DNA of 64,000 nt from a virus (lineage: Duplodnaviria > Caudoviricetes): positions 1 through 64,000 of IMG/VR virus record IMGVR_UViG_3300043748_000050, one strand, 5' to 3'. The translations under genes were made by a program, and so were the position numbers. Below are positions 20,150-36,219 of this stretch, in pieces (position 1 is the stretch's first letter; the number at the start of each line of letters is the position of its first letter). Below the pieces are notes generated by a model that made no database searches, was not told the origin of the DNA, and saw only the letters and a list, made by a program, of their open reading frames with translations.

Positions 20150-20292
20150 GGTCGGGCCTCCCCTTCGTTCCTTGGTCCGGTAGTACGAGTGCCCCCGCCC
20201 GGGGGAGGTGGGCGAGGGCACTGCACGCCGTGGCAGGACGGGGGTTGTTCGCCACGGCGGGGTGGCACGGAGTGTGCCAGTGGTTCGCCGAA

Positions 20293-20748
20293 TCACCGAA
20301 CGGCCGGGAGCGCCCAGCGTTCGGCATCCGTGCGGCGCAGGTGGGCCGCTGTCGCGGCGCGGGCGCCCGGTGAGAGACGCACCGCGAGGTTGGTGGAGGC
20401 CATGCGGCCGCGCAGGCCGATGACGACTGCCGCCTCCCCGTACGGCTCGGCGCAGCGCAGCCACGCCTCGGTGTGCGTGGACCACACCAGCGCGAGTTCG
20501 TCCGGATAGACGGCCAGGCGGTACCCGGACCGGTCCAGCGGGTTGCCTCCCATGCTGGCCGGCTCGGCCTCGCCCGCGAACCACGCGGCCAGCGGGCGCA
20601 GCCACCCGGTCCGAAGGACGACGCTCATGCGGCCGCCGAACCCGGACCGGTCCAGGTCCCACACGGTCATGGACGTCGTGCCGTCGGTGGACTGAGTGAG
20701 CCGCAGTGCGGTGCCGGGTGCGCTCCCGGTGATCTCGAACGGTTCCAC
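20293..20748 (-). CDS. Hypothetical protein
   Basis: GACCAAGGAAGG upstream of GTG. Confidence 0.65.
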   Translation of the reverse strand: MEPFEITGSAPGTALRLTQSTDGTTSMTVWDLDRSGFGGRMSVVLRTGWLRPLAAWFAGEAEPASMGGNPLDRSGYRLAVYPDELALVWSTHTEAWLRCAEPYGEAAVVIGLRGRMASTNLAVRLSPGARAATAAHLRRTDAERWALPAVR

Positions 20749-20889
20749 GGTGGTGCCTTCCTTGGTCTGTTGCCGTGAGGGGCGGCGTGCTCCCGGCCGG
20801 TCACGATCCGGCATCTCCGCCTTGAGAGGGCGGAAGGCATCCATTACCCCACGGGAGCGGGTCGGGGCCTAACGGCCCCTGTTGAGCGG

Positions 20890-21096
20890 TCAGTTCTCAC
20901 CGTCCTCGCGGACCGGGCGGCGCCCGGACCACCCGACGAAGGCCGACGTGACACCCAGGGCGGTGCACGCGCCGGCGAGCATCGCGCCCGCCGTGGCAAG
21001 GGTCTTCGCCCCGTGCTCGGCCGCGTCGCCGGCCGCCACGGCGGAGCCGACGCCGACGGTCAGTAAGCCGGCTGCCAGCTTCAGGGACTTGTTCAT
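20890..21096 (-). CDS. Small 2-TM membrane protein
   Basis: Leader motif plus GAGGA; hydrophobic segments. Confidence 0.65.
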   Translation of the reverse strand: MNKSLKLAAGLLTVGVGSAVAAGDAAEHGAKTLATAGAMLAGACTALGVTSAFVGWSGRRPVREDGEN

Positions 21097-21141
21097 GATC
21101 GATTCCTCGTTCCTTGGTCGGTGGTGCTCGGGGTGGCGCGG

Positions 21142-21393
21142 TCAGTCCTCCGCGATGCTGACGGATCCCGGGGTGAGGACGTTCTGGGGCAGAGTGCCGT
21201 CGGGGACTTCCAGCGTCAGCTCCACGGAGGACCTGTCCTCGGAGACCAGCGCTCCGACGATCTTGCAACCCCCTTCGACCGGATGCCCGTGGACATTCAT
21301 CGGCACGGTCTTGCCCACTTGGCCGTCAAACGCGGTCGGCGTGAACTGAGTCCCCGGGTCGGCGGGAAGGGTGTGCTTCATTCGCTGCGTCAT
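21142..21393 (-). CDS. Hypothetical protein
   Basis: Clean ORF in the minus-strand operon. Confidence 0.55.
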   Translation of the reverse strand: MTQRMKHTLPADPGTQFTPTAFDGQVGKTVPMNVHGHPVEGGCKIVGALVSEDRSSVELTLEVPDGTLPQNVLTPGSVSIAED

Positions 21394-21426
21394 GGGTCCA
21401 AGCCTTTCACTTGTCGGCGGTGGCCG

Positions 21427-21696
21427 TCAGTTGTTCAGGGCGATACGGGCCTGCTCCTCCAGGCCCACGCGGGCGATCCTTCGCAGTTCCGCGCCCTCGG
21501 GGCAGTCGTCCTGGGTGTCGCGGCAGACGGTGCAGCCGACGACGTGGTCCCGGTACTCGGCGAACGCGTCGTAGTACGGCAGCGTCGCGATCAGGTCCCT
21601 CTCCGGCACCGCGAGAGCGTCCAGCTCCACGTGACCGTGTGCCTCGGCCGCGTCCTGCATGTCGTCCAGGTTCCAGTTCGTCCACGTCGTCCGCAT
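21427..21696 (-). CDS. Hypothetical protein (H..C..C...C)
   Basis: First gene after the promoter at 21730-21758; leader motif. Confidence 0.7.
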   Translation of the reverse strand: MRTTWTNWNLDDMQDAAEAHGHVELDALAVPERDLIATLPYYDAFAEYRDHVVGCTVCRDTQDDCPEGAELRRIARVGLEEQARIALNN

Positions 21697-21722
21697 GGCC
21701 GGTTCCTCATTCCTTGGTCTGA

Positions 21723-21758
21723 TGAATTAATTAAACCATAGCCCCGGAAGAGGGGCAA
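21723..21758 (-). promoter_or_regulatory. Sigma70-type promoter with palindromic operator-like -10
   Basis: TTGCCC-17bp-TTTAAT; -10 lies within TGGTTTAATTAATTCA. Confidence 0.8.
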
Positions 21759-21826
21759 TACCCTCGGCGCGTCCGGCCGCCGGATAGGCTCCCGTTCACC
21801 ACCACACCGACCAAGGACAAGCGACC

Positions 21827-22498
21827 ATGACACACCTGCCTCAAGAGGGCCGGCGCATCGGCATCGTCGGAAAGGGCGGTAGCGGCAAGTCCACCACGTG
21901 GGCTCACGTGCTCGCCTACTACGGATCCATCGGCGTACCGGCCATCGGCCAGGACGCGGACGAGCCCGGGGAGAACGAGAAGGGAAGCCTTCTCGCCTGG
22001 AGCGATAAGGTCAACATCGGGGCGCCGGTCTACCGTGCGCCGGCCGCGTCGGGGATCGGTGCCGAAGCCCGGCGTCTGACACCGCCGCACGGGGTCTGCC
22101 TCATCGACACCGGTGCGTGGGAACGCCGTAGCGGGAACACGCACTTCTCCGTCCTGGCGAACGTGGACCTGTGCGTGTTCGCCCTACCGCCCACGCCGAT
22201 GGAGATGGAGCGCGCGGGGTCCGTCATGAAGGCGTTCAAGCAGATGCGCGACTTCGGCCTCACCCCGCCGCGCACGGTGTTCTTGCTGACCCTGGTCAAC
22301 CCGAACGCCAACACCGCCTCCATTGGGGAGACCCGGGACGATCTGACGGACGCCGGGTTCCACGTGCTGACGACCACCATCCCCCGCAAGGACGGCCGGG
22401 GAAGCTACGCGCAGAGCTTCGGCACGATCCCCGACGTCCGGCCCGGCAGCCCCATGGCCCGGCTCGGGGACGAACTGCTGCGGGAGGTGGCTCTGTGA
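21827..22498 (+). CDS. parA: ParA-family partition ATPase
   Basis: KGGSGKSTT deviant Walker A, DAD, LIDTG. Confidence 0.88.
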   Translation: MTHLPQEGRRIGIVGKGGSGKSTTWAHVLAYYGSIGVPAIGQDADEPGENEKGSLLAWSDKVNIGAPVYRAPAASGIGAEARRLTPPHGVCLIDTGAWERRSGNTHFSVLANVDLCVFALPPTPMEMERAGSVMKAFKQMRDFGLTPPRTVFLLTLVNPNANTASIGETRDDLTDAGFHVLTTTIPRKDGRGSYAQSFGTIPDVRPGSPMARLGDELLREVAL

Positions 22499-23316
22499 GC
22501 CCTACGGGTACGCGCGCCAGCCGCGCTGATCTGCTGCGGGGGGACCGGTCGAACGCCGAGAGCGAGACGGTGAACCCCCTGCTGCCCGCCGAAGCCGCCA
22601 AACCGGCGAGCCCGTTCATTCCGCAGCCCGTCGACCCGGCAGCCGTCACTGGGTCCGCCGAGCAGCGCCTGGCCGCGTTCGAGGCCGCCATCGACCGCGC
22701 GAAGGAGACCGCTGGGACCACACTCAAGGCCGCCCGCGCCCGGTTCGTCGTGGAAGCCGGTACGGCCTTGAAAGCGATCCGAGACGAGGACGGCGGTCTC
22801 TACAAGGTCAGCCACGCCACGTTCGAGGAGTACATCGCCGGCCGGTGGGAGATGGACCGCTCCCGGGCGTACCAGCTCATCGACGCGGCGCCGGTCATGC
22901 TGGTCATGTCGAAAATTTTCGATGCCGCCCCGGTCGAGTCGCACGCCCGCATCTTGGCCCCGGTGTACGAGGGGCACGGCGAGCCGGCCGTCCGCGAGGT
23001 CGTCGCGGCTGTGAGCACCACCGGCGAGAAGATCACAGCAGCGGCCATCCGTGAGGCCGCCGGCCGGCTCAACTACCTGCCCGACCCGATCCCGCCGGCC
23101 GACGGCAAGCCCGAAGAACTGCCGACGGACCACAGCCGCACCGAGGCCCGCGCGCTGGTGCGCCTCGAACAAGGTCTGGCCGCGCTGAAGGTGGCGCACC
23201 GGGCGCTGCGCGGGCGGGTCATCCCCGACGCCGTGGCGGCCGACCACGAGCACGGCAGCGAGCTGGTGGGGGAGGTCGCCGACCTCGCGAGGAGGGTCCT
23301 CCTGCTGACGAAGTGA
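22495..23316 (+). CDS. ParA partner / centromere-binding-like protein
   Basis: Coupled to parA; G.AL.AIRD..LY....TFEEY...RW...RSRAYQLI HTH-like segment. Confidence 0.65.
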   Translation: MSPTGTRASRADLLRGDRSNAESETVNPLLPAEAAKPASPFIPQPVDPAAVTGSAEQRLAAFEAAIDRAKETAGTTLKAARARFVVEAGTALKAIRDEDGGLYKVSHATFEEYIAGRWEMDRSRAYQLIDAAPVMLVMSKIFDAAPVESHARILAPVYEGHGEPAVREVVAAVSTTGEKITAAAIREAAGRLNYLPDPIPPADGKPEELPTDHSRTEARALVRLEQGLAALKVAHRALRGRVIPDAVAADHEHGSELVGEVADLARRVLLLTK

Positions 23317-23326
23317 CGGCGCGCAG

Positions 23327-23358
23327 AAGCCCCGGTTCCCTCGCGGGGCCGGGGCTTC
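23327..23358. terminator. AAGCCCC-type terminator hairpin
   Basis: AAGCCCCGG...CCGGGGCTT between convergent genes. Confidence 0.7.
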
Positions 23359-23372
23359 TCGGTTGAGACGGG

Positions 23373-23492
23373 TCAGTCGGATCGGAACTTGGAGAAACAG
23401 CCGTAGCAGCGCCACCATGGCTCACGGCGCCAGGGCCACCGGCGCAGCCGCACGATGATGTGCTGGGCGCCGCAGTTCGGGCAGGCAGGCAT
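23373..23492 (-). CDS. Small Zn-ribbon protein
   Basis: CPNC...CYGC. Confidence 0.45.
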   Translation of the reverse strand: MPACPNCGAQHIIVRLRRWPWRREPWWRCYGCFSKFRSD

Positions 23493-23494
23493 GA

Positions 23495-23716
23495 TCACAG
23501 CCCCGCAATGACGCGGGCCGCGTTGCTGTCGGTGGCGTGGCCGTTCTCGCCCGCCCAGTCGGCGACGTCCAATGGCCACCGCTTGTCGAAGTAGCCGATG
23601 ACGACGGTGGCGCCCTCCTGGCGGACCGTGTGGACGGTGTCGCCGGGCCGGGAGGCCCCCTCGATGACGGCCGCCGCGTGCTGCTCGTCCAAGCAGATGA
23701 GCCGTGCCTCGGGCAT
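23495..23716 (-). CDS. Hypothetical protein
   Basis: Leader motif at 23731-23740 plus GAGGA. Confidence 0.65.
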   Translation of the reverse strand: MPEARLICLDEQHAAAVIEGASRPGDTVHTVRQEGATVVIGYFDKRWPLDVADWAGENGHATDSNAARVIAGL

Positions 23717-23843
23717 GGTCAGTTCCTCTCTTCCTTGGTCCGGGCGTACCGGTTGATCAGGGCGTGTGCCGCCCAGCCGAGGCCGAGCAGCAGCGCGGAT
23801 GCGAACGGCGCGCACACGATGGCGACGCCGATGGTTCGGGCGG

Positions 23844-24290
23844 TCACGGTTCCCCGTCCCCGGCGAGCCGCTTGAGCGAGTCGAAAGCGGCGCGGTCGGC
23901 GGCGGTGAATTCGTCGCTGCGCGATTCCATCCGTTCCTCAGCCTGGCCCAGGGCGAAGCGCAGCATCGTGCGCTCGGCGGAGTTCAGGGTCTGTGCAGCC
24001 ACGTACTCGTCCAGGGCTGCGGCGAACGAGGGAAGGTCTTCCTCTTCTGCCCCGGCCTGGACGTAGCCGAACAGACGGTCGCGCAGCTCGGCTGCGTCAC
24101 CTGATCCCCTTTCCGGCTCGGGCGGGCGCCGGTTGTCAGACGGCGCGTGCTCGGGTTCCGCGTTCTTGGCCGCGTCCATCGCAGCCTCCAAGCCGTCATC
24201 CCAGCCGGACCGGTAGCGCTGTGAGCCCGACGGGGGCTGTGCCTTAAGTCCGAAGATCGCGCGCACAACGCGCCGCGTGCGGTCGTCCAT
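23844..24290 (-). CDS. Hypothetical protein
   Basis: GACCACGGAA plus GAGGAG upstream. Confidence 0.65.
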   Translation of the reverse strand: MDDRTRRVVRAIFGLKAQPPSGSQRYRSGWDDGLEAAMDAAKNAEPEHAPSDNRRPPEPERGSGDAAELRDRLFGYVQAGAEEEDLPSFAAALDEYVAAQTLNSAERTMLRFALGQAEERMESRSDEFTAADRAAFDSLKRLAGDGEP

Positions 24291-24331
24291 CTCTCCTCGT
24301 TTCCGTGGTCGTCGGTCGCTTCGGTCGCTGT

Positions 24332-24430
24332 TGGTGGGTCCGTCCGGAGTTGAACCGGAGTCTTCCCGGAGCGCGGGAACCGACCAAGGAACGCGCTCGA
24401 CGGGTGCACTGCCTTCTGTGCTACGGACCC
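24332..24430 (-). ncRNA. tRNA-like RNA with anticodon loop replaced by a hairpin displaying UUCCUUGGUCGGUUCC
   Basis: GGGUCCG/CGGACCC acceptor plus ACCA; U8A9; D arm GCAC/GUGC with GG in the loop; T arm UCCGG-UUCAACU-CCGGA; anticodon arm CCCG+GAGCGCG / CGCGCUC+CGGG closing a 16-nt loop. Confidence 0.88.
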
Positions 24431-24468
24431 GCGTTGCCGGGATCACGGCTCCCGGCCGGCCGTCGTGC

Positions 24469-25002
24469 TCAGTCGGCCGGTGCGGCCTCGTGTTCATCGA
24501 TCCACTGCTGGGCGATGAGCCCGTTGAGGGCCCGGTACGCCGTACGACCGGAGTCCCGGTCGACCACGCTGTGCGTCAGCGGCGGCGCAGGCATGAAATC
24601 TCGGGCGGAGAAGTACCGGCCCTTGTCGCCGTCCAGGGCGACCAGGCGCAGCCGGTCGGCGACGATGTACTTCTCGCCCCGGAAGTCGGTGCGCCGGTAC
24701 CAGCCCTTGATGCCGTGCTCGGCAGCGTAGGCGTCGACCCGCTCGGCATGCCACGGCCGGGTGTCGTCCGGGGCGGCCGATTCGGCATTGGCGAGCGCCT
24801 TGAATACCTGGGTCACGGCGGCGCCGTCGGCCTGGAGCTGCGCGGCCCGCGCCGCGTACTCGTACGCCTTCACGCGGGCAGGGTGCTCATCAAGCAGCCG
24901 GAACGCCGTGACGATGTCGACGTGCGCCTGGCCGGTGAGCAGCGGGCGCAGGGTCTCTCCGGTCGGCTTCACGGGCGAGGCGGGGAGCAGGGACAGGTCC
25001 AC
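24469..25002 (-). CDS. Hypothetical protein
   Basis: Leader motif at 25016-25025. Confidence 0.7.
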   Translation of the reverse strand: MDLSLLPASPVKPTGETLRPLLTGQAHVDIVTAFRLLDEHPARVKAYEYAARAAQLQADGAAVTQVFKALANAESAAPDDTRPWHAERVDAYAAEHGIKGWYRRTDFRGEKYIVADRLRLVALDGDKGRYFSARDFMPAPPLTHSVVDRDSGRTAYRALNGLIAQQWIDEHEAAPAD

Positions 25003-25023
25003 GGTCGGTTCCTCGTTCCTTGG

Positions 25024-25254
25024 TCAGTTGACGGGGACGGTGCGCAGGCCGAGGTACAGGCCGCGTTCCCGGCCGACGTCGTAGACGCGGTTGACGATGG
25101 TCATCGCCTGGCCGTACGGCACACCGAGGGCGCGTAGCTCGTCTATGGCCGCCTGCGTCTGGTCCATGGCGGCGGTGAATCCGGGATCGGCGATGCGGTC
25201 CTCAGTGGTCACGGCGGGGTCCCCTCCCTGGGCGCCTTCGGCGGCTCGGATCAT
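25024..25254 (-). CDS. Hypothetical protein (start may be 25212)
   Basis: Downstream of the promoter at 25329-25357. Confidence 0.55.
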   Translation of the reverse strand: MIRAAEGAQGGDPAVTTEDRIADPGFTAAMDQTQAAIDELRALGVPYGQAMTIVNRVYDVGRERGLYLGLRTVPVN

Positions 25255-25321
25255 ACGGCCGAGGGCGGATTTTCGGTTCCTTGATTCCTTGGTCCGTCGG
25301 GCCGTCCTGTGGACCGCCCGA

Positions 25322-25357
25322 TGAATTAATTAAACCATAGAGGCCTGGCCGGTGCAA
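25322..25357 (-). promoter_or_regulatory. Promoter/operator cassette; likely drives the tRNA-like RNA operon
   Basis: TTGCAC-17bp-TTTAAT within the palindrome; terminator-like hairpin at 25371-25401. Confidence 0.8.
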
Positions 25358-25414
25358 CTCCGGACGGCAAAGAGCCCCGGAACCGCAGGGGCTCCGGGGC
25401 TCACGAACCGCTGG

Positions 25415-25891
25415 TCAGACGTAGCTGCGCGCGAAGGCTGCCGCGTCGGCGACCAGCTCGAGCACCTCGCCGGCGGTGCGGCCGGCTTCGTCGTTCCACG
25501 GCATCCCGGCGCCGAGCCGTCCGGTGCGCACCTGCACCATCAGGTCCAGGAACCGGTTCGCGACGTTGTACGTGGTGGACGCGTACGCCTCGAGCGGCAC
25601 GTCGGCCGAGTCGCCGTAGCCGAGCTCCGCCGCCACCGACAGGGCGCGCAGCAGGCAGACGGCGCCGGTCTCGTCCCAGAACTGGTCCTGGGTCCAGCCG
25701 CGCTCGATGAGGACGTTCAGCACGCCGTCGAGGTGGCGGGCCACGGCCTCGCGGGGCGCACGGAGCAGTCCGGCGCGCTGCCAGCTCCACACCGGGTTCT
25801 CGAGCAGCCGGGCCGCCGCGTCCAGGCGGGCGATGCGCTCCGCCTCGGCCACCGGGGAGAAGTCGGTGGCAGCGGTCGTCATGACGGTCAT
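25415..25891 (-). CDS. Hypothetical phage protein (DUF6197-like)
   Basis: GWTQ...G.VCL..AL...WND....R...EV...; own promoter TTGCCG-17bp-TTTAGT at 25931-25959. Confidence 0.65.
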   Translation of the reverse strand: MTVMTTAATDFSPVAEAERIARLDAAARLLENPVWSWQRAGLLRAPREAVARHLDGVLNVLIERGWTQDQFWDETGAVCLLRALSVAAELGYGDSADVPLEAYASTTYNVANRFLDLMVQVRTGRLGAGMPWNDEAGRTAGEVLELVADAAAFARSYV

Positions 25892-25982
25892 GAGGGTCCC
25901 TCTTTCCTTGGTCGCTGTTCCTATGGATTAACTAAACCAAGGATCCCGGGGTTCGGCAACCCCGGGATCCGGCCATTCGATG

Positions 25983-26222
25983 TCAGCTCGACAACCGGGA
26001 CAGCGCGCCCTCGCGGTCCATGAGAACCGGGTGCGAGTGCTTCCACCCCTCCATCGGGCCGACGATTCCGGCGGCTTCGAGCCGGCCGAGGATGGTCTGC
26101 GCCCCGGTGAACGTCACGTCGATGCCATGGTCCTGACGCAGCCGGCGCTTGAGCCCCGACGGCGAGCCGTGACGGGCGCCGGTGGTGACGATGCCGGCCG
26201 CGATGCGCAGTACGTTGTCCAT
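25983..26222 (-). CDS. Stand-alone FtsK gamma-like winged-helix protein
   Basis: GSPSGLKRRL...A..IL.RLEAAGIVGP.EG.K...VL matches the FtsK gamma consensus. Confidence 0.65.
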   Translation of the reverse strand: MDNVLRIAAGIVTTGARHGSPSGLKRRLRQDHGIDVTFTGAQTILGRLEAAGIVGPMEGWKHSHPVLMDREGALSRLSS

Positions 26223-26225
26223 GGG

Positions 26226-26681
26226 TCAGCCCTCCCGCTTGACCGAGTGCAGCGTGAACGTCCAGTTGGAGCGCGGCCCGTGCTCGGACCGGACCTGCAC
26301 CAGGGCCCGGTAGCGGGCCTCCAGCTCGGTGCGTGCGTGGACGAAGATCGGGTACAGCTCGTTCCCGTCGCCGTCCGGCTGCACGGCCCTGTGCTTCAGC
26401 GTCACGGTCCACCGGCGGAACTCCACGCGGCGCGGGAAGACCTGGGACGGCCGGTACCGTCGCGCGGTGTCCTCGCCCTCCTGGGAGCAGCGCAGGTGCA
26501 GGCCGTTCCGGTCCATCCGGACGTACACGGCCGGGAACTCCACCTCGTTGCCGTGCTCGTCGTAGGTGCGGATTGTAACGGGTTGCCCCGTAGTCGCCTG
26601 GCCGGGGCGCAGGTGGGCCAGTCCGGGACGGGTGGCCCGAAGGGACACCGTCGGCCTCTCCACCGAATAGCTGGTCATCAC
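26226..26681 (-). CDS. Hypothetical protein
   Basis: Leader motif at 26699; promoter/operator at 26724-26765. Confidence 0.65.
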   Translation of the reverse strand: MMTSYSVERPTVSLRATRPGLAHLRPGQATTGQPVTIRTYDEHGNEVEFPAVYVRMDRNGLHLRCSQEGEDTARRYRPSQVFPRRVEFRRWTVTLKHRAVQPDGDGNELYPIFVHARTELEARYRALVQVRSEHGPRSNWTFTLHSVKREG

Positions 26682-26794
26682 GGGCCCTACTTTCCTGGTT
26701 CCTTGGTCCCCGACCTAACGTGCCGGTTTAGTTAAATCATAGGCGGGCCCCGGGGGCGTGGACAACCCCGGGGCCCGGACTTTCTGCGATCGGG

Positions 26795-26986
26795 TCAGCG
26801 GATGGGCTTCCCGCACTGTTCGCAGTGGTACGTGTAGACCCGCATCAGATCCCGGCGCCGGGCCGGGTCCAGACGACGCCCTCGAAGACCCCGCGCGCAC
26901 CCTGGGCAGAACCAGAGACTCCCGTCGTCGGTGAACCCCACGATCTCGCTGCCGTGGTTGTCCGGCGGGGTGCGCTGCTCAGCCAT
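26795..26986 (-). CDS. Small Zn-finger protein
   Basis: CPGC...CEQC; AGGAG RBS. Confidence 0.55.
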   Translation of the reverse strand: MAEQRTPPDNHGSEIVGFTDDGSLWFCPGCARGLRGRRLDPARRRDLMRVYTYHCEQCGKPIR

Positions 26987-26989
26987 GCG

Positions 26990-27157
26990 TCACTTCTCCT
27001 TCGTTCGGCGGCCGGTGACGACGCGGAACGTGTCGGATGCCAAGTCCATCACGACCTCGGCGTCCGGGTGGCCGGAGCTGCGTTCCTGCTGCGCGCGTTC
27101 GTCGGCGGGGCGTTGCCCTCGCGGGTGCCCTGCGGGGGAGCTGAACAGAATCTTCAT
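26990..27157 (-). CDS. Small hypothetical protein
   Basis: Leader motif at 27171-27180. Confidence 0.55.
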   Translation of the reverse strand: MKILFSSPAGHPRGQRPADERAQQERSSGHPDAEVVMDLASDTFRVVTGRRTKEK

Positions 27158-27249
27158 GGTCGGTTCCTCGTTCCTTGGTCGGGGAGGCTGAGCGGCCTCG
27201 TGAGGAGCATCGGCGTACGGGGTCCGTCGTCGATGCTCCCGGGTGGGGC

Positions 27250-27423
27250 TCAGGCTTCGTTCGTGCGGCGTTCGTCCAGCTCCGTCAGAACCTGGTCGAT
27301 CTCGTTGTGCATCTGGTCCTGACCGACCTGCCAGCGGGTCTCGCCGTAGCCCTTGGCGATTTCCGCCATGGCTGTAACGGCCGTCTCCAGTTGTTCGGTG
27401 CTCAGCTTGTCGTAACGCGACAT
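27250..27423 (-). CDS. Small hypothetical protein (57 aa, absent from the ORF track)
   Basis: GAGGAGAGGAA RBS; MSRYDKLSTEQLE... Confidence 0.6.
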   Translation of the reverse strand: MSRYDKLSTEQLETAVTAMAEIAKGYGETRWQVGQDQMHNEIDQVLTELDERRTNEA

Positions 27424-27471
27424 GATCGGTTCCTCTCCTCGGGTAAGTGAGGCTGAGCGGCCTCGTGGGGT

Positions 27472-27786
27472 TCAGCCTCCGGATGCGTACGTGTACAAGT
27501 GGCCGGTGGCCTGGGTGTGCTCGTCCATGGTGAGGCCGCAGCCCTCCACGCAGGGCAGTTCGACCGGCTCGGGCGTGGCCACCTTCTGCTCGTCCGGCAG
27601 CCGGGTCCACTCCAGGTCCGCGATGCCGTTGATGATCTCGTCCTTCCGCCACGACTCCAGCGGGTTGGCGCTCCAGACGTGTCCCAGCCGGCGGTACAGC
27701 GCGCACAGCTCGGCCTTGCGCATCTTGTTCAGCTCGCCTCCCCGGCGGAGCCAGTGCTGCTGCTTGGTCTCGGGCTCGATGGTCAT
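27472..27786 (-). CDS. Hypothetical protein
   Basis: GAGGAACC RBS; ATGA overlap. Confidence 0.6.
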   Translation of the reverse strand: MTIEPETKQQHWLRRGGELNKMRKAELCALYRRLGHVWSANPLESWRKDEIINGIADLEWTRLPDEQKVATPEPVELPCVEGCGLTMDEHTQATGHLYTYASGG

Positions 27787-28181
27787 CCGGTCGGTTCCTC
27801 TCGGTTCAGTGTGCGGATGGTGATGCCGTGCCGCTCGGCCATGGCGAGGCAGCGTGGACACGAGACGTTCCGGTCCGGGCTCTCGTACAGGCCCCAGAAC
27901 TTCGCCTGCGGCTTGCACAGAGCGTCCCCGGTCTTCCGGACCAGCCGGCCGACGTTCAGCGGCTGGTCGAGCACGGCGTGTTCGCCGTTCGTCATGTTCG
28001 GGCCCTGCCGGAGGTGGAACGCGGTCCGCACGTGCGCCGACGCCACAGCCGGGTCGACGGGCGGGAGCTGCCGCGCTTCGGTGTACGGCGTGGAGGCCTG
28101 AGGCACCGGGCCCTTCTCTCCGGGGTGGTCCCGCTCATACGCTGCGGACATCGCGTCGAACATGTCCTGGAAGCTGCCCAC
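27783..28181 (-). CDS. Hypothetical protein (H..H..C..CPRC)
   Basis: AAAGGAG RBS. Confidence 0.6.
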   Translation of the reverse strand: MGSFQDMFDAMSAAYERDHPGEKGPVPQASTPYTEARQLPPVDPAVASAHVRTAFHLRQGPNMTNGEHAVLDQPLNVGRLVRKTGDALCKPQAKFWGLYESPDRNVSCPRCLAMAERHGITIRTLNREEPTG

Positions 28182-28242
28182 GGCCGCTCCTTTCTGCTCG
28201 GATCGAGTGGGGCCGCCGGTCGACGGCCCCGGATCGCATCGG

Positions 28243-28656
28243 TCAGGCGTTGACGAGCTCGCGGGACGGCTGACGCACGGTCTGGCGGACGGTCACCGGG
28301 GCGCCGTTGGCCAGGATCATGAGCACCACGGCCGCCTTGATGTCCGCGCGCCTCGGCTTGTAGTTCCGCAGCAGGACGCCGACCTGGACGGTGGTGAAGT
28401 GGTACGTCACCTTGGTCCGCTTCGTCTTGCCCCGCACCGTGCGGTGCCGGCGGACGACCTTGACGGGCTTCATCCCGATCCGCTTGGCGACCGAGGTCAG
28501 GCCGTTGCGCACGCCTTCCAGCGTCTCCGTCCTCTCCACGCCGGCTGCGATCGCGTGGGTGGCGATGGCACGGCCCCGGTGCAGGGAGCGGGCGAAGCGG
28601 GTGGCGGCGGCGCGCTCGGCGACGATCCGGCGGCGGAGTCGGGAGGTCTTCGTCAT
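28243..28656 (-). CDS. Highly basic hypothetical protein
   Basis: Promoter TTGTGC-17bp-TTTAAT (28711-28739) plus leader motif. Confidence 0.7.
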   Translation of the reverse strand: MTKTSRLRRRIVAERAAATRFARSLHRGRAIATHAIAAGVERTETLEGVRNGLTSVAKRIGMKPVKVVRRHRTVRGKTKRTKVTYHFTTVQVGVLLRNYKPRRADIKAAVVLMILANGAPVTVRQTVRQPSRELVNA

Positions 28657-28797
28657 GGTCGGTTCCTGCTTTCCTTGGTCTGTCGGCCGGTGTTCCCTGC
28701 CGATGAATTAATTAAATCAGAACCGGGGTGTAGGCACAACCCCCAAACGCGATGAAGCCCCGACCCGGTGAGGGGTCGGGGCTTCGAGGACGGGTGC

Positions 28798-28983
28798 TCA
28801 GCGAACGGTGAACTGGTCGCCCATCCGCCGGATCTCCGCGCCGGGAGCGCTGATCCGGCCGGGACCGATGCCGACCAGGCCGCCGGCGACCCGGTCCATC
28901 TCGTTCAGCAGCTCGGCCACCTGCGCGGCCAGGGCTCGGATGCGCTCTTCCATGTCGTGGATCTCGCTCATGCTCTGCTTCAC
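28798..28983 (-). CDS. Small hypothetical protein
   Basis: GAGGAGG RBS. Confidence 0.55.
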   Translation of the reverse strand: MKQSMSEIHDMEERIRALAAQVAELLNEMDRVAGGLVGIGPGRISAPGAEIRRMGDQFTVR

Positions 28984-28992
28984 GATGCCTCC

Positions 28993-29403
28993 TCAGTACC
29001 AGTGACCGTCGGCGTTGCGGGTCTTCACGTACGTCCGAACCCACGGTTCCTTGGACCCCTTGGGCGCCGGGTAGCGGACGGACGCGTGGTGCCGGTACGT
29101 CGCCGTCACCGTGGCCGGGTAGTGATCTCCCTGGAAGCTGTGCATGCTGATCGTGTCGCCGACGCGCAGTCCCAGGAAGTCGGGCGTCTCGACCATGGCC
29201 GAGTGCTCCCACCACCGCCGGTACGCCACGGGGTTCCCGCGCGGCGCCTCGGGCATCGGCTCGAACAGGTCGCCGGGCCGGTAGTCGTAGGCGTACCGCT
29301 CGTCCAGCGCGTACCTGGTGAGTGACTGGGTCGGGCTGTAAAGGAATCCCCGGTCGAACGCCGCCGGGACGCTGGAGGCGGGGAGGGTCAGCAAGTCAGT
29401 CAT
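28993..29403 (-). CDS. Hypothetical protein
   Basis: Leader motif at 29422. Confidence 0.65.
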   Translation of the reverse strand: MTDLLTLPASSVPAAFDRGFLYSPTQSLTRYALDERYAYDYRPGDLFEPMPEAPRGNPVAYRRWWEHSAMVETPDFLGLRVGDTISMHSFQGDHYPATVTATYRHHASVRYPAPKGSKEPWVRTYVKTRNADGHWY

Positions 29404-29477
29404 GTCGTCCTCGTTCCTCAGTTCCTTGGTCAGGGTGGTGCAGGACCCCGGAATCGCCAACCGGGGCCCGGGGTCCG

Positions 29478-29777
29478 TCAGCGCAGGTACGGGGTCGGGT
29501 CGACGGTGTCGCCGTCGGTCCACAGCCAGCGGTCGAACCGGCTCACGGTCTGTCCGAGCGAGTAGGGCGACACGGCGTCCCGGTTGTCGAGAACGTTCAT
29601 ACGGCCCTCCAGCTCGTCCATGAGCCAGCCGCGCGTCATCGCGAGTTCCTCGGTCACCGGCATGGTCTCGGTGATCAGCCACGTCGTCGTCAGCTTCTCG
29701 TCCGACAACTGGCTGATCGATTCCCGGGCGGCGGCTTCCAGTCGCCGGCCCTCCGGGGTCTTGGCTCGCAGGTGCAT
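29478..29777 (-). CDS. Hypothetical protein
   Basis: Promoter TTGTCC-17bp-TTTAAT (29817-29845). Confidence 0.7.
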   Translation of the reverse strand: MHLRAKTPEGRRLEAAARESISQLSDEKLTTTWLITETMPVTEELAMTRGWLMDELEGRMNVLDNRDAVSPYSLGQTVSRFDRWLWTDGDTVDPTPYLR

Positions 29778-29817
29778 GTCTTCCTCGTTCCCTGGCCGGT
29801 CCGTCCCGATGAATTAA

Positions 29818-30408
29818 TTAAACCATCGATGCGTCGCTGGGACAAGTCCAATCGCACACCTCGTTCAGCACGGACCAGAGCACGTCGTCGCGGCCCCACA
29901 CCGGGTCCACGACGGCCAGCAGGACGCCCTCGCGCCGCAGTTGACGGCGGGCCAGCCGGCCGACGCCGGACAGCTCAGGAATGCCCTGGAAGCGGCCACG
30001 ACGGCCCCCGAATCCGGTCTGCGGCACGCCGTTCCACCGGGTCGCCAACAGGCCGCCACGCGGGCCCACAGCCCTTCCGGCGCCGTACGCGGAGACGCGC
30101 AGGCCTTGCGCCCGCGCCGCCCGGACGATGCGCACCAGCAGGGGATCGCCGGTGCTGATCCAGCCCTGCACGGCCGCGCGCTGCTCCCACTTGTCCACGT
30201 ACCCGGAGGTCTCAAGCCCCGGCTGGCTGTCGGTGGTGACGTAGCCGCGACGGTTCAGCCGGGCCAGCACCGGGACCAAGTGGTCCGTCTCCCCGTCGGG
30301 GCGGTCGGCGGTGTAGCCGGGCCTGTCGGCCACGTGACCCTCCAGCCACCCAGCCATCGCTCCGCCGAGGTCACCGATGCTGCGCGCGTCGCGCCAGATG
30401 CGGTCCAT
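29818..30408 (-). CDS. DUF6919-like protein
   Basis: W..A....DL...MA.WLEG...ET..LVP.LA.LNR.G..T..SQPG...QRAAV.G. Confidence 0.6.
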   Translation of the reverse strand: MDRIWRDARSIGDLGGAMAGWLEGHVADRPGYTADRPDGETDHLVPVLARLNRRGYVTTDSQPGLETSGYVDKWEQRAAVQGWISTGDPLLVRIVRAARAQGLRVSAYGAGRAVGPRGGLLATRWNGVPQTGFGGRRGRFQGIPELSGVGRLARRQLRREGVLLAVVDPVWGRDDVLWSVLNEVCDWTCPSDASMV

Positions 30409-30593
30409 CAGCGGTGGCCCTTCCACTCGGAGAACAGCACGCTTGACCCGGCGGCGAGATACGCGCCGCCTGCCAAGCCGGCCAGGGTGTGGGTGGAGCC
30501 GGAGAACGTGCCCGCCCCGCCGAAGGCGATGACGAGCAGCGCGACCCCGGCCGCAGCCATGATCAGTCCGGTGGTTACCCAGTACGGCCTCAT
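30408..30593 (-). CDS. Small 2-TM membrane protein
   Basis: Leader motif at 30611; hydrophobic. Confidence 0.6.
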   Translation of the reverse strand: MRPYWVTTGLIMAAAGVALLVIAFGGAGTFSGSTHTLAGLAGGAYLAAGSSVLFSEWKGHR

Positions 30594-30666
30594 GTTTCCT
30601 CGCTCCTTGGTTCCTTGGTCAGGGTGGTGCAGGGCCCCAGAATCACCAACCGGGGCCCGGAGTCGG

Positions 30667-31272
30667 TCAGGCCGACGGGTTGGGGAGCCCGGAGACCCGG
30701 GCCACGGCTGCGGCGTCCAGCGAGCCTTTGGCCAGCAGTGCGTCGGCCACGGCACGCACGCGGTCCCAATGAGCGTCCAGGGTGGCGTCAGCCCCCGAGC
30801 AGACCTGCGTCCACCCGTCCCACGGGTGCGCCGGGATGTCGAGCGTCCGCCCCATCTCTGCGGCGGCTTCCACTGCCCTGTTCCGGTCGCTCCGTGCGCC
30901 GCGTTCGACGGACCACGCTCGCTCTGGGGTCCACTGCCCGGTCTCTCGTAGCCACCGGTCAGCGGCCCGCTCGCCGGCTGCGAGGTAGCAGGTGTACCCC
31001 GTCCAGCTCGCCGAACCGGACCAAACGGTGTGGAACATGAACTTCCCGTCGTTGCCGGGGGACAGGAACACGCCGTCGATCCCCATGCGGAAAACCAGTC
31101 CGACTACCGCGTGCCCGGCCTCGTGAAACACCCCGACCATCCGGGTCAGGTCGCCGAGTGGCTCGTAGAACCGCCGGACGCCCTCGGGCTGCGGGTGCCA
31201 CGTCCACATGCCGTCGCTGTTCTGCGTCCAGGCGGACTCGGCGGTGCGGATGCTCATCGCAGGCACGGTCAC
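30667..31272 (-). CDS. HEXXH zinc-metalloprotease-like protein, paralog A
   Basis: HEAGHAV...AGERA..RWL.E...SD...HWDRV.AVADAL (M41-like). Confidence 0.65.
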   Translation of the reverse strand: MTVPAMSIRTAESAWTQNSDGMWTWHPQPEGVRRFYEPLGDLTRMVGVFHEAGHAVVGLVFRMGIDGVFLSPGNDGKFMFHTVWSGSASWTGYTCYLAAGERAADRWLRETGQWTPERAWSVERGARSDRNRAVEAAAEMGRTLDIPAHPWDGWTQVCSGADATLDAHWDRVRAVADALLAKGSLDAAAVARVSGLPNPSA

Positions 31273-31310
31273 GGGTCTGTCCTTCCTTGGTCGCGGCGGG
31301 GCCGAGGTGG

Positions 31311-32027
31311 TCAGGCGGCCTGCGCCGCCGGGAGGGGTGCGCGGTCCAGCTTGAAGAACCAGCGGTGGAAGTCGTGCCGGTCCCACCGGCGCGGTCGGCT
31401 GTACCTGTCATCCAGGACGGTGACGCCGGACGTCTCGACGCTCACGACGGTGGCGGTGTACCAGATGCCGCTCGCGATCCCGTTGCGCATCAGCCGGTCG
31501 CCGACGCCGACGGGCGCCTGCACCGTGCCGCCGGTGAACCGGGTGTACTCCACCAGCACGGGCCGGGCGTCGCCCTCCGGGGCTTCCAGTGCCCGCTCGG
31601 TCATGAGGTCCGCGAGGTGTTCCTGGACCAGCGCGTACAGCGGCTCCGTGCGGTACGAGTTCTCCGGGTCGTACACACCGCGCGCCAGGCGCTCGAACAC
31701 CGGGTGCAGCTCGCCGCCGCTCGGGACGAGACGGACGAACGCCAACCGCAGGCCTTCGTTGTCCATCGCGGGCGGGTAGCCCCGGCCGTCGGCCTCGGCG
31801 AGCACGGCGACCGCGCAGGCGCGGGCCACGTCCGCCTTCGTGGACGACGGGCAGCCGGCGCAGGTGGTCGGGCTGTCGGTGACGCGGGCCAGGTCCAGCT
31901 TCTCGTAGTGGCGGACGACCGCGTACCGGCCGGCGTCGCACGCGACGTCGATGAAGTCGCCGGTGTACCCGTTGAACAGACCCTGGTGGACAGTGCCGTC
32001 GTGGCCGGTGACGTTTCGGTGCTCCAT
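31311..32027 (-). CDS. Hypothetical protein
   Basis: Promoter cassette at 32051-32097. Confidence 0.7.
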   Translation of the reverse strand: MEHRNVTGHDGTVHQGLFNGYTGDFIDVACDAGRYAVVRHYEKLDLARVTDSPTTCAGCPSSTKADVARACAVAVLAEADGRGYPPAMDNEGLRLAFVRLVPSGGELHPVFERLARGVYDPENSYRTEPLYALVQEHLADLMTERALEAPEGDARPVLVEYTRFTGGTVQAPVGVGDRLMRNGIASGIWYTATVVSVETSGVTVLDDRYSRPRRWDRHDFHRWFFKLDRAPLPAAQAA

Positions 32028-32050
32028 GACTTCCTCGTTCCCTGGTCGGT

Positions 32051-32914
32051 GTCCCGATGAATTAATTAAACCATCGATACGTCGTCGGCACAAGCCCTCG
32101 GACGTGACGAAGCCCCGGGCCGCGAGGGCACCGGGGCCGGGGCGGTCAGACCGGGCGGTGGCCGTCGGCGTAGACGGTGTGGATCACGGCGTACGTCGCG
32201 TCCTTGACGCCCCGGGCGATGACCGCGCGAGCGCCCCGCACGATCTCCAGCGCGCGGGCGTAGTTGGTGGCGCCGTCCACGTGCTCGACGTCCTCGAACG
32301 TCGTCTTGCCGGTGGCCGGGTCAAAGTGGGTGAAGGTCACGACGTAGCCGGTGGTGTCCGCGTGGCCGTGCTCGCAGCGCGTGTGCCCGTGCCAGTCGGT
32401 CGGCTGCGGGATCGCAGGCTTCGGCGCGATGTACCCGTGCCGGGCCGGCGCCAGGGCCTCGCGCGCCGCCTCCAGGGACGGGAAGTCGCGGGGCGTGGTG
32501 CTGTTCGGGTAGACGTGCTCAGCGGCGAGCTTGCGCGCGGTCTCCACGTCCCAGTCAGCGGCAGGGAGCAGCCAGTGTCGCCCCGTGGCGTGCAGCATCC
32601 CGTCCAGCTTCTGCGCGTAGCTACCGTCGTAGCGCGCGTAGCTACCGTCGTAGCGCGCGTCCCGGACCATCTTGATCCGCCCGTCCCGGTACAGGTTCGT
32701 GACGACCATGAGCCGGTACGCCAGCGACTCTTCACGAGCGTACGAAGACGCGGTGTACGACGGGCGCAGCTCCACCATCACGAGGTCGCCGCGACGGGCC
32801 TTGATCTGCGGGGCTGTGGTCTCGGTCATGGCTGCTGCCTTCCTTGGTCCGTCGGTTCGGCGGCTCCGTCCCGATGAATTAATTAAACCATCGATACGTC
32901 GTCGGCACAAGCCC
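32051..32914. repeat. 47-bp identical direct repeats (promoter/operator unit) at 32051-32097 and 32868-32914
   Basis: GTCCCGATGAATTAATTAAACCATCGATACGTCGTCGGCACAAGCCC; 28-bp partial copy at 29803-29830. Confidence 0.9.
32146..32829 (-). CDS. Hypothetical protein with a 21-bp tandem duplication (ARYDGSY x2)
   Basis: Leader motif at 32840; repeat at 32613-32660. Confidence 0.7.
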   Translation of the reverse strand: MTETTAPQIKARRGDLVMVELRPSYTASSYAREESLAYRLMVVTNLYRDGRIKMVRDARYDGSYARYDGSYAQKLDGMLHATGRHWLLPAADWDVETARKLAAEHVYPNSTTPRDFPSLEAAREALAPARHGYIAPKPAIPQPTDWHGHTRCEHGHADTTGYVVTFTHFDPATGKTTFEDVEHVDGATNYARALEIVRGARAVIARGVKDATYAVIHTVYADGHRPV

Positions 32915-32976
32915 CCCAGGCACGACGAAGCCCCGGGCCGTGAGGGCTCCGGGGCTGTCGAAAATTTTAGACCCGG

Positions 32977-33342
32977 TCAGGCGCGGTCCACGCGGAACGC
33001 GTAGCCGCTGCCCGCGTGCGCCACCGTCGTACCGAGCGGCTGGCCGGTCAGGCCGTGGGCGAACCGGCGGGCCTCGCCGCGCGGCACGCGGGAGGTGTCC
33101 ATCAAGCAGTAGGCGGCGGCGAACTCCACCTCGCGCAGCGTCCCCAGCGGCCGGTGCGACTTCTCCTCACCGCTCGGCAGGGTCCGGGTGAGCAGGTACT
33201 GCATGGGTTCCTCGTTTCCTTGGTCGGCGGCTCGCGCTTCGCTGCGGAGGGCCAGATACTCCATGAACTCCTCCACGACCGCCCGGTCCCCGGGGCTCAT
33301 GCGGAAGTTCGGGTTGTTGCCGCAGGGCGGCCCGTCGCTCAT
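32977..33342 (-). CDS. Hypothetical protein (probable second start at 33204)
   Basis: Leader motif at 33216 precedes an in-frame ATG. Confidence 0.6.
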   Translation of the reverse strand: MSDGPPCGNNPNFRMSPGDRAVVEEFMEYLALRSEARAADQGNEEPMQYLLTRTLPSGEEKSHRPLGTLREVEFAAAYCLMDTSRVPRGEARRFAHGLTGQPLGTTVAHAGSGYAFRVDRA

Positions 33343-33674
33343 CGCAGGTAATCCGTTTGCGGACGGGGCTCGAGCGGCCAGCCGCCCATGCCGGTGCGGC
33401 GGTTCGCGTCAGGACGATCGACGTCGGCCGGCCGGTGCCGGTCCACGATCTCCCGCATCCACCCGGGCATCTCCACGACGGGCGGGAAGTGCTCCGCCGC
33501 CGTGGCGTACTCCACGACGATGTCCACGCGGGTGATACCCCGGGTGATGCTGTAGTCCAGGCGGAGGCCCACGGGCTTGCGGCGCCCACCGGCCATCGTC
33601 TTCATCGGCTTCATGTCGTCCGGCAGGCTCACGCGGACCTCGTACCGGATCTCGCGTACGGTCTCGGTGCTCAT
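33339..33674 (-). CDS. Hypothetical protein
   Basis: GAGGAAG RBS. Confidence 0.6.
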   Translation of the reverse strand: MSTETVREIRYEVRVSLPDDMKPMKTMAGGRRKPVGLRLDYSITRGITRVDIVVEYATAAEHFPPVVEMPGWMREIVDRHRPADVDRPDANRRTGMGGWPLEPRPQTDYLR

Positions 33675-33683
33675 CGCTTCCTC

Positions 33684-34004
33684 TCAGCTCTCCGCACCGA
33701 GCCACTCGGCGAGGTCGCGCTGCATGCCGTCCCACACGGCCAGCGTGAACTCGGCGGAGTTGACGCACCGCTGGTTCCCGGCCGCCCGGCCTGCGGCCAG
33801 CTGACCCTCGTACAGCGCGGTGACGCAAGCAGGGTGCAGACCGCTCTTGCGCAGCTCGGACAGGTTCTTCGTCGCGACCCTGAAGCCGTCGGTCCGCATC
33901 GCGGCTGCGGTGCGGGGCGTCATGACGCCGTCGGTCACCAGTCGGGACAGCAGGTCGTCGGCGGCCTGGCGCGCGTGGGGCAGCACCGGGCGGAGTTCGT
34001 CCAT
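33684..34004 (-). CDS. Hypothetical protein
   Basis: Promoter TTGTGG-17bp-TTTAAT (34042-34070) plus leader motif. Confidence 0.7.
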   Translation of the reverse strand: MDELRPVLPHARQAADDLLSRLVTDGVMTPRTAAAMRTDGFRVATKNLSELRKSGLHPACVTALYEGQLAAGRAAGNQRCVNSAEFTLAVWDGMQRDLAEWLGAES

Positions 34005-34050
34005 GAGGTTCCTCGTTTCCTTGGTCTGTCAAGCTGAATTAATTAAACCA

Positions 34051-34953
34051 TCACGACGACGGCTCCACAACCCCCAACGCGCGACGGATTCCGTCCTCCA
34101 ACGACACCTTCGGCTCGTAGTACAGGAGCATCCGGGTCGGGTCGCCGACCCGGTACGCGACGCCGGCCGGCTTGTCCTCGAGCGGCTGGACCCACGGTCG
34201 GTAGCCGGCGACCGTCGCCATCGTCCCGGCCAGCTCCAGGAACGACGTCGCCCGGCCGGTGCAGAGGTTCACCGGGTCCGTCGTCCCCGACTCCGCCACG
34301 GCCAGCGCCCCGGCCACGACGTCGTCCACGTGGATCCAGTCGCGCACCTGCTCGCCGCTGCCCCATACCGTCAGCGGGTCCTCGCGCCGGCGGACCCGCT
34401 CGAGGATCGCCCGGAACGGGTACGTGTCGTCCTGGTCCCCGCCGTAGCCGCTGAACGGCCGAACGACGGTCACCGGTCCCCCTGCCTCGCGCAGCCGGCC
34501 GGCCAGCAGCTCACCGGTCACCTTGGACCAGCCGTACACCTGGTCCGGGTCTATCAGCCCGTCGTCGCCCCATACGTCGGCCTCATGCAGCCTGATCCCG
34601 CGTACCCGTTGGAGATGCACCGGGTATGCCGCGCTGGAGCTGAAGTACAACACGCGTCCGGGCCGTACGACGGCGGCCCACCGGAACATCTCCGCGTCGA
34701 TGGACAGGGACTCCGCCGTGGCCAGCGGGTCGCCGTCGATGGTGGCCCGGCCGCCGACCACGGCGGCACAGTGCACCACCAGGTCCCAGTGCGGCATCGT
34801 GCGCAGCCGGACGTCCTCGGCGAACAGTCGCCGGCAGTCCTGGGACCGCGTCACCTTCACATCGCAGCCGACGACGTCGTACCCGCGCGCTCGCAGCTCC
34901 GCCGTGAAGTGCTTGCCGAGGAACCCCCGGTCGCCTGTGATCAAAGCCCGCAT
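34051..34953 (-). CDS. NAD-dependent sugar epimerase/dehydratase
   Basis: ITGDRGFLG, SSSAAY, YGWSK, RDWIHVDD. Confidence 0.9.
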   Translation of the reverse strand: MRALITGDRGFLGKHFTAELRARGYDVVGCDVKVTRSQDCRRLFAEDVRLRTMPHWDLVVHCAAVVGGRATIDGDPLATAESLSIDAEMFRWAAVVRPGRVLYFSSSAAYPVHLQRVRGIRLHEADVWGDDGLIDPDQVYGWSKVTGELLAGRLREAGGPVTVVRPFSGYGGDQDDTYPFRAILERVRRREDPLTVWGSGEQVRDWIHVDDVVAGALAVAESGTTDPVNLCTGRATSFLELAGTMATVAGYRPWVQPLEDKPAGVAYRVGDPTRMLLYYEPKVSLEDGIRRALGVVEPSS

Positions 34954-35044
34954 GACTCGCTCCTCAGGAACAGGAAGACGCAGAAGACGACCGCCAGTCC
35001 CGGCAGCCAGATGACCGCCGATTCCTTGACGGCCCGCCAGACCC

Positions 35045-35629
35045 TCACCACCGGTCCCGCCTTCCGCTCGTGTTCGCGCCGTGCCAATGCCAGAGCCACG
35101 TACGCTGATTGCGGTGCTCGAAACGGGCGCCAGCGTCCAGCAGCCGCTCCCAGGTCCCCCAGTCGTCGCAGGGGTTGTCCGCAGGACCCTTGGCGTGGAA
35201 CCCGCCGACGTCCAGCAGCAACTCGGTCCGCACCAGCACGGTGATCGGGACGTAGTTGACGGACCGTAGCAACTCACGGTCGAACGGCTCGCCCTCGCGC
35301 TCCGGCCACGGGTCGCCCCCGGGGTGCTCGGGAATGGTGAACCACGGGTAGACGAGGTCGGCGCCGGTCATCTCGGCGTATTCGAGCAGCAGCGCGACGT
35401 GGTCCGGCAGCCACTCGTCATCGTCGTCGAGCAGCGCCGACCACTCGGTGCGCACCGCCTCGAGCGCCCGGGTCCGGTTCGCGGCCGCGCCGAGCCGTTC
35501 GTGGTCCAGACTCACACTGATCGCGTCGACCGGCCGGCTCTGCGCCAAGACCGAACCGAGCGCGCGACGCAAGTAGGTGTCGGCCCGGGGCGGGATCGAC
35601 GGGATGACCGCCGTGACGCCGGGCCTCAC
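35045..35629 (-). CDS. Glycosyltransferase family 2
   Basis: AVIPSIP.R, LLDDDDEW, DDW. Confidence 0.85.
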   Translation of the reverse strand: MRPGVTAVIPSIPPRADTYLRRALGSVLAQSRPVDAISVSLDHERLGAAANRTRALEAVRTEWSALLDDDDEWLPDHVALLLEYAEMTGADLVYPWFTIPEHPGGDPWPEREGEPFDRELLRSVNYVPITVLVRTELLLDVGGFHAKGPADNPCDDWGTWERLLDAGARFEHRNQRTWLWHWHGANTSGRRDRW

Positions 35630-36219
35630 CGGGCGAGCACCACCTGGAACAGCTCCGTCTGCTCGTGCCGGACGATATCCCAGCCGGCCTCCTCGATCAT
35701 CGCCGCGTACCCCTCCCGGTCCCAGGCCCACGCGTGGCAGGCGTCGTGGACCCGGTCGGTCTCGTTGACCGGGCTGGAGCACACCAGGCGCCACGACTTC
35801 TGCCGGACCCACCGCAGCACGCCGTGCGGGTCGGCCAGGTGCTCGAGCACTTCGGTCATCACCCCGACGTCTCCGACCCGGACGCGGGACCGGTCCGCGC
35901 CGAACACGTCGGCCAGCTCCGCCGTAACGCCACGCTCGGCCCAACCGGCCGCGTTGCTGGGCTGGAAGTCGTAGCCCCAGCAGGTCGCGTCCGTGTACGC
36001 CTGCACGAGGCTGAGCAGGCCGCCGTCTCCGCACCCGAGGTCGGACACGGTCGTCGGCGGGTCGAGGTCGCAGACTGCGTCGGTGACGAACTGCGCGGCC
36101 AGGCGGAGCCGGCCTTGATGCCACTCCTGCTCGAGGTGCGGCGCGCGTTCGCGGTCGGCGTGGAACGCTGCCGTGGAGACGTGCGGAACCGATCCTTCGA
36201 ACAGCTTCCACTCGCTCAC
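35626..36219 (-). CDS. Class I SAM-dependent methyltransferase
   Basis: DLGCGDG, EVLEHL. Confidence 0.85.
   Translation of the reverse strand: MSEWKLFEGSVPHVSTAAFHADRERAPHLEQEWHQGRLRLAAQFVTDAVCDLDPPTTVSDLGCGDGGLLSLVQAYTDATCWGYDFQPSNAAGWAERGVTAELADVFGADRSRVRVGDVGVMTEVLEHLADPHGVLRWVRQKSWRLVCSSPVNETDRVHDACHAWAWDREGYAAMIEEAGWDIVRHEQTELFQVVLAR

Follow-up and report, generated by a model that had tools for sequence, protein, structure and literature searches.

A tRNA-shaped RNA as the predicted antisense partner of a repeated leader tag in Streptomyces phage-plasmids

From sequence comparisons, we predict that a family of tailed phages encodes a processed antisense RNA with a tRNA body, together with a genome-wide regulon of genes that carry a common tag in their leaders. 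The loop of the RNA very probably pairs with this tag in trans. The RNA was analyzed in a 64-kb stretch of DNA (hereafter the window), which is the first part of a complete record of 98,039 bp with terminal repeats and 68% GC. The features described below are collected in Table 1.

The record carries genes for a ParA-like protein, WhiB, a primase-polymerase and a tyrosine recombinase, as well as a gene in the ParB position. Because the relatives appear as single ~92-kb contigs within Streptomyces assemblies, the members of the family are most likely plasmid prophages of Streptomyces; they are present in the cultured strains S. africanus NRRL B-24243 and Streptomyces sp. NPDC017936. About 15 promoters were observed at 21723-63566 in a cassette-like accessory region; they combine a TTG -35 element with a -10 box that overlaps TTAATTAA, and often follow a GC hairpin. 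A tRNA-Glu(CUC) with a degenerate T loop is located at 20787-20858 (minus strand), and weak matches of a similar kind occur in the relatives.

Table 1. Positions of the RNA, the leader tags and the neighboring elements in the window
Feature	Position	Strand	Remark
Non-decoding tRNA-shaped RNA: acceptor, D arm, extended anticodon arm, T arm, encoded CCA	24332..24430	-	
Added 7-bp GC stem bearing the loop	24369..24398	-	Helix 4: 99% paired, one compensatory pair
14-nt loop core CCUUGGUCGGUUCC, complementary to both leader blocks	24376..24389	-	17/17 identical
Tag with a mismatch, GACCACGGAA, in the leader immediately 3' of the RNA	24301..24310	-	No perfect core, 15/15
Conserved 5' element: 7-bp hairpin or H-type pseudoknot	24436..24462	-	4-6 nt before the RNA in most members
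62-aa helical-hairpin core gene	25024..25257	-	Always 0.8-3 kb upstream of the RNA
Operator-bearing promoter (TTG..TATGGT + TTAATTAA)	25323..25333	-	Nearest upstream of the RNA
parA and parB-position gene	21827..23316	+	Convergent; marks the plasmid-prophage life style
Sense-strand exact tag copies (n = 33) on non-structural genes	20168..63595	.	
Canonical two-block leader (example): GACCAAGGAA followed by GAGGAACCGACC and the start codon	25003..25025	-	
Tag over the start codon (ATG ACC AAG GAA)	58085..58094	-	Letter-for-letter in 7 orthologs
Second start-overlapping tag	40948..40957	-	
Type II hammerhead ribozyme, 3' tail = tag	37971..38034	-	
Type II hammerhead ribozyme, 3' tail = tag	39131..39194	-	

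The minus-strand tRNA-like fold proposed in the original prediction was borne out. The cloverleaf, composed of a 7-bp acceptor, ACCA, and the D, T and extended arms, has an energy of -47.1 kcal/mol (z = -3.6; 0 of 200 shuffles), and the locus is miscalled by ARAGORN as tRNA-Thr. Pattern scans and look-ups via the linked 62-aa gene yielded 17 different copies of the RNA from Streptomyces phage-plasmids of ~90-98 kb; these relatives share descent, so that counts across them are not independent. In an alignment of 15 copies, which was fitted to the model and with which an unfitted 8-row alignment agrees, 97% of the positions in helices are paired and two-sided changes are found at 7 pairs (0 of 500 shuffles, far above slid controls). 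The changes fall in the acceptor, D, anticodon-base, added and T stems, and this pattern supports the view that the tRNA scaffold is under structural selection.

All members combine a tRNA cloverleaf with conserved D- and T-loop bases and an anticodon arm of 3-4 bp, a bulge, 7 bp and a loop of 15-18 nt, in place of the 5-bp stem and 7-nt loop of a decoding tRNA. The tRNA elbow is intact and CCA is encoded in 12 of 15 members; acceptor mismatches in several members argue against aminoacylation. Instead of the tmRNA alanine identity pair G3-U70, 13 of 15 members have G3-C70, and no tmRNA was found by ARAGORN at the locus. Within the early block, the RNA gene always occupies the final operon, at a distance of 0.3-2.5 kb to the convergent parAB genes, while the flanking genes are swapped between members. 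No homologs were found in GenBank phages, an Rfam search with the window copy gave no meaningful match, and neither a model search of 150 nor a protein search of 400 Streptomyces genomes revealed a further member. The RNA is apparently undescribed, as no description of such an RNA was found in a literature search that covered few subscription papers.

The tag GACCAAGGAA has 34 exact matches in the window, compared with 0.08 expected. The claim of about 33 copies near non-structural genes was confirmed by 33 copies on the local coding strands, and the copy within the loop, at 24382-24391 on the plus strand, is indeed the sole antisense one. The 98-kb genome contains 40 copies in total; according to our own gene calls, tagged leaders precede 42 of 112 non-structural genes versus 1 of 25 structural genes. 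The majority of tags end 8-18 nt ahead of an ATG, usually 5' of a second block, the Shine-Dalgarno (SD) sequence GAGGAA, and the tags at 25294, 58210 and 59064 have no start codon of their own. Tags overlapping the start were observed in 15-16 genes from about four ortholog groups, versus 0 of 369 control genes. All the M-T-K-E starts use the codons ATG ACC AAG GAA, though GAA is a minor Glu codon.

The tag appears to act at the level of RNA and not of promoters, since its spacing to the start is tight (sd 2.4 nt) and its spacing to the operator is loose (sd 10.3 nt), and since two thirds of the tagged leaders are promoter-less (only 95 of 274 have a promoter within 130 nt). The RNA and the tag co-occur in all 8 whole or near-whole tagged genomes, which contain 24-40 exact tags and one intergenic antisense copy each. 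Both the tag array and the RNA are lacking in G003, a related phage whose tail protein is 67% identical, and in the partial genome G002. The two-block tag has 0 copies in four Streptomyces genomes and 19 copies in a fifth, all on a phage contig. The imperfect tag directly 3' of the RNA is what would be expected if pairing in cis were avoided, although shared descent weakens this count. Within the gene for a 933-aa exonuclease, a tag, an SD and an in-frame GTG (52786-52810, minus strand) mark a probable internal start; this internal tag recurs in G004, G011, G012 and G013.

The 14 columns of the loop core are all invariant in the 15-copy alignment, compared with 45 of 91 columns elsewhere, and the two members that have diverged most keep the same core. 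Stems and flanks vary, yet the core is kept even in L345, in which the D arm is degenerate. The complementarity between loop and leaders is far above chance. The proposed 10-nt register, by contrast, had to be shortened: the loop UU opposite the final AA of the tag is kept in only 7 of 17 RNAs, and so the conserved register is GACCAAGG, that is, 8 nt plus extensions. This register is often lengthened by an upstream ACC (A in 43%, C in 61% and C in 40% of cases; -19 to -23 kcal/mol). The second leader block, GGAACC(GACC), at the SD and spacer, finds its complement in GGUUCC, the 3' half of the loop; since the rest of the loop matches GACCAAGG, the invariant core complements both canonical leader blocks. 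Tagged leaders carry GGAA(CC) where other genes carry GGAG(G). Among tagged leaders, 15% have GGAACC as the second block and 21% have the register GGAACCGACC-start; in control leaders, the shares are 1% (p 1e-11) and 1.7%, respectively. Net binding amounts to -13.9 versus -5.7 kcal/mol, and the loop opens for 2.7.

The original prediction had also listed three leader variants as A-to-G changes that keep G:U pairing. These variants exist, but the choice was selective and the general argument fails: substitutions over 389 leaders include 73 of the wobble type versus 137 that break a pair, 74 of the latter being A6 to C. The commonest variant, GACCACGGAA, which had been omitted, breaks a pair and occurs in four leaders of the window (54513, 45377, 36934 and 24310). 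Position 6, which is C in 19% of leaders (a U-C mismatch), tolerates change and lies opposite the base with which the UUGGUC tip loop begins. The closing AA of the tag is 94-99% conserved and, in the simple register, faces no conserved partner. A diverged lineage is represented by L352 and L353, two contigs from different samples that have the same marker protein and overlap. Its tags are GACCGAGG (six), GACCAGGG (two) and GACCAAGG (two), and its loop is unchanged; this is a one-sided, wobble-consistent A-to-G shift in 8 of 10 leaders. No relative in which loop and leader had changed jointly was found among those examined.

Several other elements surround the RNA and its targets. The conserved element on its 5' side is 97% paired without a two-sided change; its stems are constant and its linker bases vary, and in L353 a hairpin is inserted in its loop. 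The variable linker and the tolerated insertion favor an RNA fold, with covariation absent, and disfavor a promoter or a palindromic DNA site. The 62-aa gene has a promoter with its own invariant TATGAT box (CCGTATGATCC box) and without the operator, preceded in nearly all members by the start-less tag at 25294. Its product has no Pfam or Atlas match, and its fold matches only generic helical hairpins (Z up to 6); the gene is a candidate for a maintenance function or a cofactor. Both hammerheads match Rfam RF02276, and a GGUC in their loop I is able to pair with the tag's GACC, so that hammerhead folding could face competition from the RNA. Type II hammerheads were not found in the scanned parts of G001, G004, G005, G011, G012 and G015. 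A second anticodon-less tRNA-shaped RNA was observed at 51053-51151 (minus strand) upstream of an SSB-like gene; it has a homolog with a conserved C-rich tip in G001 and a short-armed version at the same place in G003, and no dispersed complement of it was found.

We lean towards a mechanism in which an RNase P-processed antisense RNA represses the initiation of translation of early genes. Its starting point is visible in the sequence: the tRNA body is kept and the 7-nt anticodon loop is gone. As judged from tRNA biology, host RNase P and 3' trimming would excise the RNA from the last early operon, and the product would be stable. Such stability would matter in a host without Hfq; neither Hfq nor CsrA was found in three phages and two hosts, and a self-stabilizing scaffold fits this negative result. 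The UUGGUC tip would nucleate on the complementary GACCA of the tag and the helix would extend to 8-13 bp, while GGUUCC may pair with the GGAACC of the SD block, either as a second register or in a two-helix clamp. The duplex and the tRNA body would then block 30S loading on 25-40 early and accessory genes. Since the nearest promoters upstream of the RNA carry the TTAATTAA operator, a stable RNA could build up after its short-lived targets or from prophage leak. Sharing operator-controlled promoters with its targets and presumably outliving them, the RNA may switch off early synthesis with a delay during lytic growth, silence early transcripts that leak from the plasmid prophage, or do both.

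Repression is the most economical reading because pairing at the start-overlapping tags can only block initiation. Tagged leaders also seem to need no help, since their SD energy is ordinary (p 0.15), their folding is much weaker than that of other leaders, and 90% of them use ATG as the start codon. Several observations argue against this reading: (i) the majority of tags are located between -18 and -30 and so reach no further than the margin of the ribosome footprint, (ii) an initiation block does not explain the conserved start-less tag before the promoter of the 62-aa gene, (iii) parA carries a perfect core in this genome, and (iv) position 6 of the tag is often mismatched and its conserved AA lacks a conserved partner in the simple register. 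The same pairing might have a positive outcome if the tRNA body docked at the ribosome (E site or L1 stalk) and tethered the tagged mRNAs, which would be privileged in early translation. The tight tag-to-start spacing, the intact elbow with its frequent CCA, and the avoidance of GGAGG by tagged leaders (4% vs 19-29%) point this way; however, the leaders are open with normal SD energy, pairing at start-overlapping tags and in the SD register would block initiation, and the lengthened arm would be unable to fit the decoding site normally, so we consider such tethering unlikely. We consider it decidedly unlikely that pairing targets the transcripts for cleavage, decay or premature termination: the spacing of most tags follows the start codon, and no family-specific nuclease was identified, even though start-less tags are conserved (the 25294 and 58210 classes), the tag forms the hammerhead tail in two leaders, and the comparable CI RNA of P4 works by termination (PMC4825925).

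It is quite improbable that the tag is instead a protein site, or a DNA site like the stoperators of L5, with which the RNA competes or to which it is secondary. A bound protein would explain why position 6 is free, why GGAA is invariant and why GGA blocks stand in tandem at a distance of 5-6 nt. The tag also fits the CsrA/RsmE consensus CANGGA; this version is weakened because no CsrA was found in three phages and two host assemblies, in a search whose controls gave a signal in 3 of 14 cases, and the 62-aa core protein is all-helical, unlike CsrA. Moreover, the spacing follows start codons and not promoters, and a protein site would not account for a tRNA arm that displays an invariant antisense copy at its tip. 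Leaders are repetitive and recombining, and other Streptomyces prophages carry this scaffold with loops that are unrelated and lack dispersed targets, as one would expect of a decayed tRNA or generic decoy that gained an inverted leader fragment by chance. We nevertheless disfavor this origin as highly improbable, since the same 14 loop bases persist in every copy, L345 included, while the D arm, acceptor and flanks diverge.

Generic scans of IMG/VR for long-armed tRNA-like genes gave at least ~200 loci among the matches listed, and among these loci only the loop of the present family matches repeated leaders. Loops of gut phages that resemble the anti-SD have 1-2 matches per record. In unrelated phages, tRNA-shaped RNAs with loops like the 16S anti-Shine-Dalgarno sequence were observed at L245:1755-1838, L272:878-963 and L238:2109-2198 and have few exact targets. 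The same D-loop/T-arm scaffold with other loops is found in temperate Streptomyces prophages (L121:3526-3623, L157, L186, L335, L336 and L337), for which no dispersed complement was found; in G006, the scaffold RNA sits between the integrase and repressor-position genes. In the region G003:65132-67083 (L139), four to five genes share a short repeated leader particular to that phage, and three unusual tRNA-like genes are present; no antisense loop matching this leader was found. It is conceivable, if rather unlikely, that the RNA belongs to a wider phage class of guide-adaptors with swappable guide loops and private tags, in which the tRNA body would bring a ribosome or nuclease via a two-helix clamp.

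For the conserved start-associated repeats of actinophages, the question of an RNA or a protein partner was raised in 2011 (PMC3203893). Here, the tag and a candidate partner share one genome, CCUUGGUC being one half of the loop and GGUUCC the other, and the question is thus directly testable by a 14-nt swap. If the prediction is true, dozens of interchangeable accessory genes would be under the control of one RNA, and a gene placed behind a tagged leader would join the regulon. It would further offer a candidate function for one set of phage tRNA look-alikes without an anticodon, which annotation tools mislabel as tRNAs, and would suggest a compact, Hfq-free, reprogrammable translational switch for Streptomyces.

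The RNA was initially thought to resemble no described system. This view does not stand, because the C4 and CI RNAs work alike (PMC5320573, PMC4825925) and the tag falls in the class of start-associated sequences, or SAS (PMC3203893). The C4 RNA of P1 and P7 is processed by RNase P, and its loops occlude a ribosome-binding site (PMC5320573). Like C4, the present RNA most likely belongs to a plasmid prophage, has a loop complementary to mRNA leaders of its own phage, and carries two predicted guide segments. Unlike C4, whose fold of ~77 nt comprises three stem-loops, including the loops a' and b', and whose target is the icd-ant leader, it has a full tRNA body of 99 nt, one long loop and 25-40 dispersed predicted targets. 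It does not resemble C4 in sequence; the RF01695 covariance model did not match it, and the control genomes were equally silent. The CI RNA of P4 is a processed antisense RNA that pairs with two sites of its own phage and silences lytic genes (PMC4825925); it causes termination at seqA and seqC, which flank it, whereas the targets described here are genome-wide and spaced to starts.

The SAS of cluster K mycobacteriophages and cluster EF Microbacterium phages are private, asymmetric repeats in one orientation before non-structural starts, mostly ATG, and often behind operator-like repeats (PMC3203893, PMC7302621). The tag is likewise asymmetric, private, rare in the host and in one orientation at non-structural starts. 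Unlike the SAS, which contains the SD, it differs in sequence, mostly precedes a second SD, and does not occupy the SD position 3-7 nt from the start. A tRNA-shaped antisense partner was found neither in Angelica nor in 50 kb of AnnaSerena, and the latter 50 kb has no reverse copy of the repeat. The single reverse SAS of Angelica was rejected as a partner, as it lies inside coding sequence with two mismatches and no tRNA fold, and the repeat in 50 kb of Quhwah looks like a promoter.

With tRNAs (RF00005), the RNA shares the acceptor, D and T arms, U8, A14, G18G19 and the T-loop, and two members pass RF00005 gathering; unlike tRNA and tmRNA, it has frequent acceptor mismatches and lacks the 7-nt anticodon loop, G3-U70 and a tag frame. 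GcvB and RyhB use one seed to repress many leaders near the ribosome-binding site, and both depend on Hfq and have loosely defined targets. In contrast to them, the RNA described here is apparently Hfq-free and combines a tRNA scaffold with a near-invariant, purpose-built tag.
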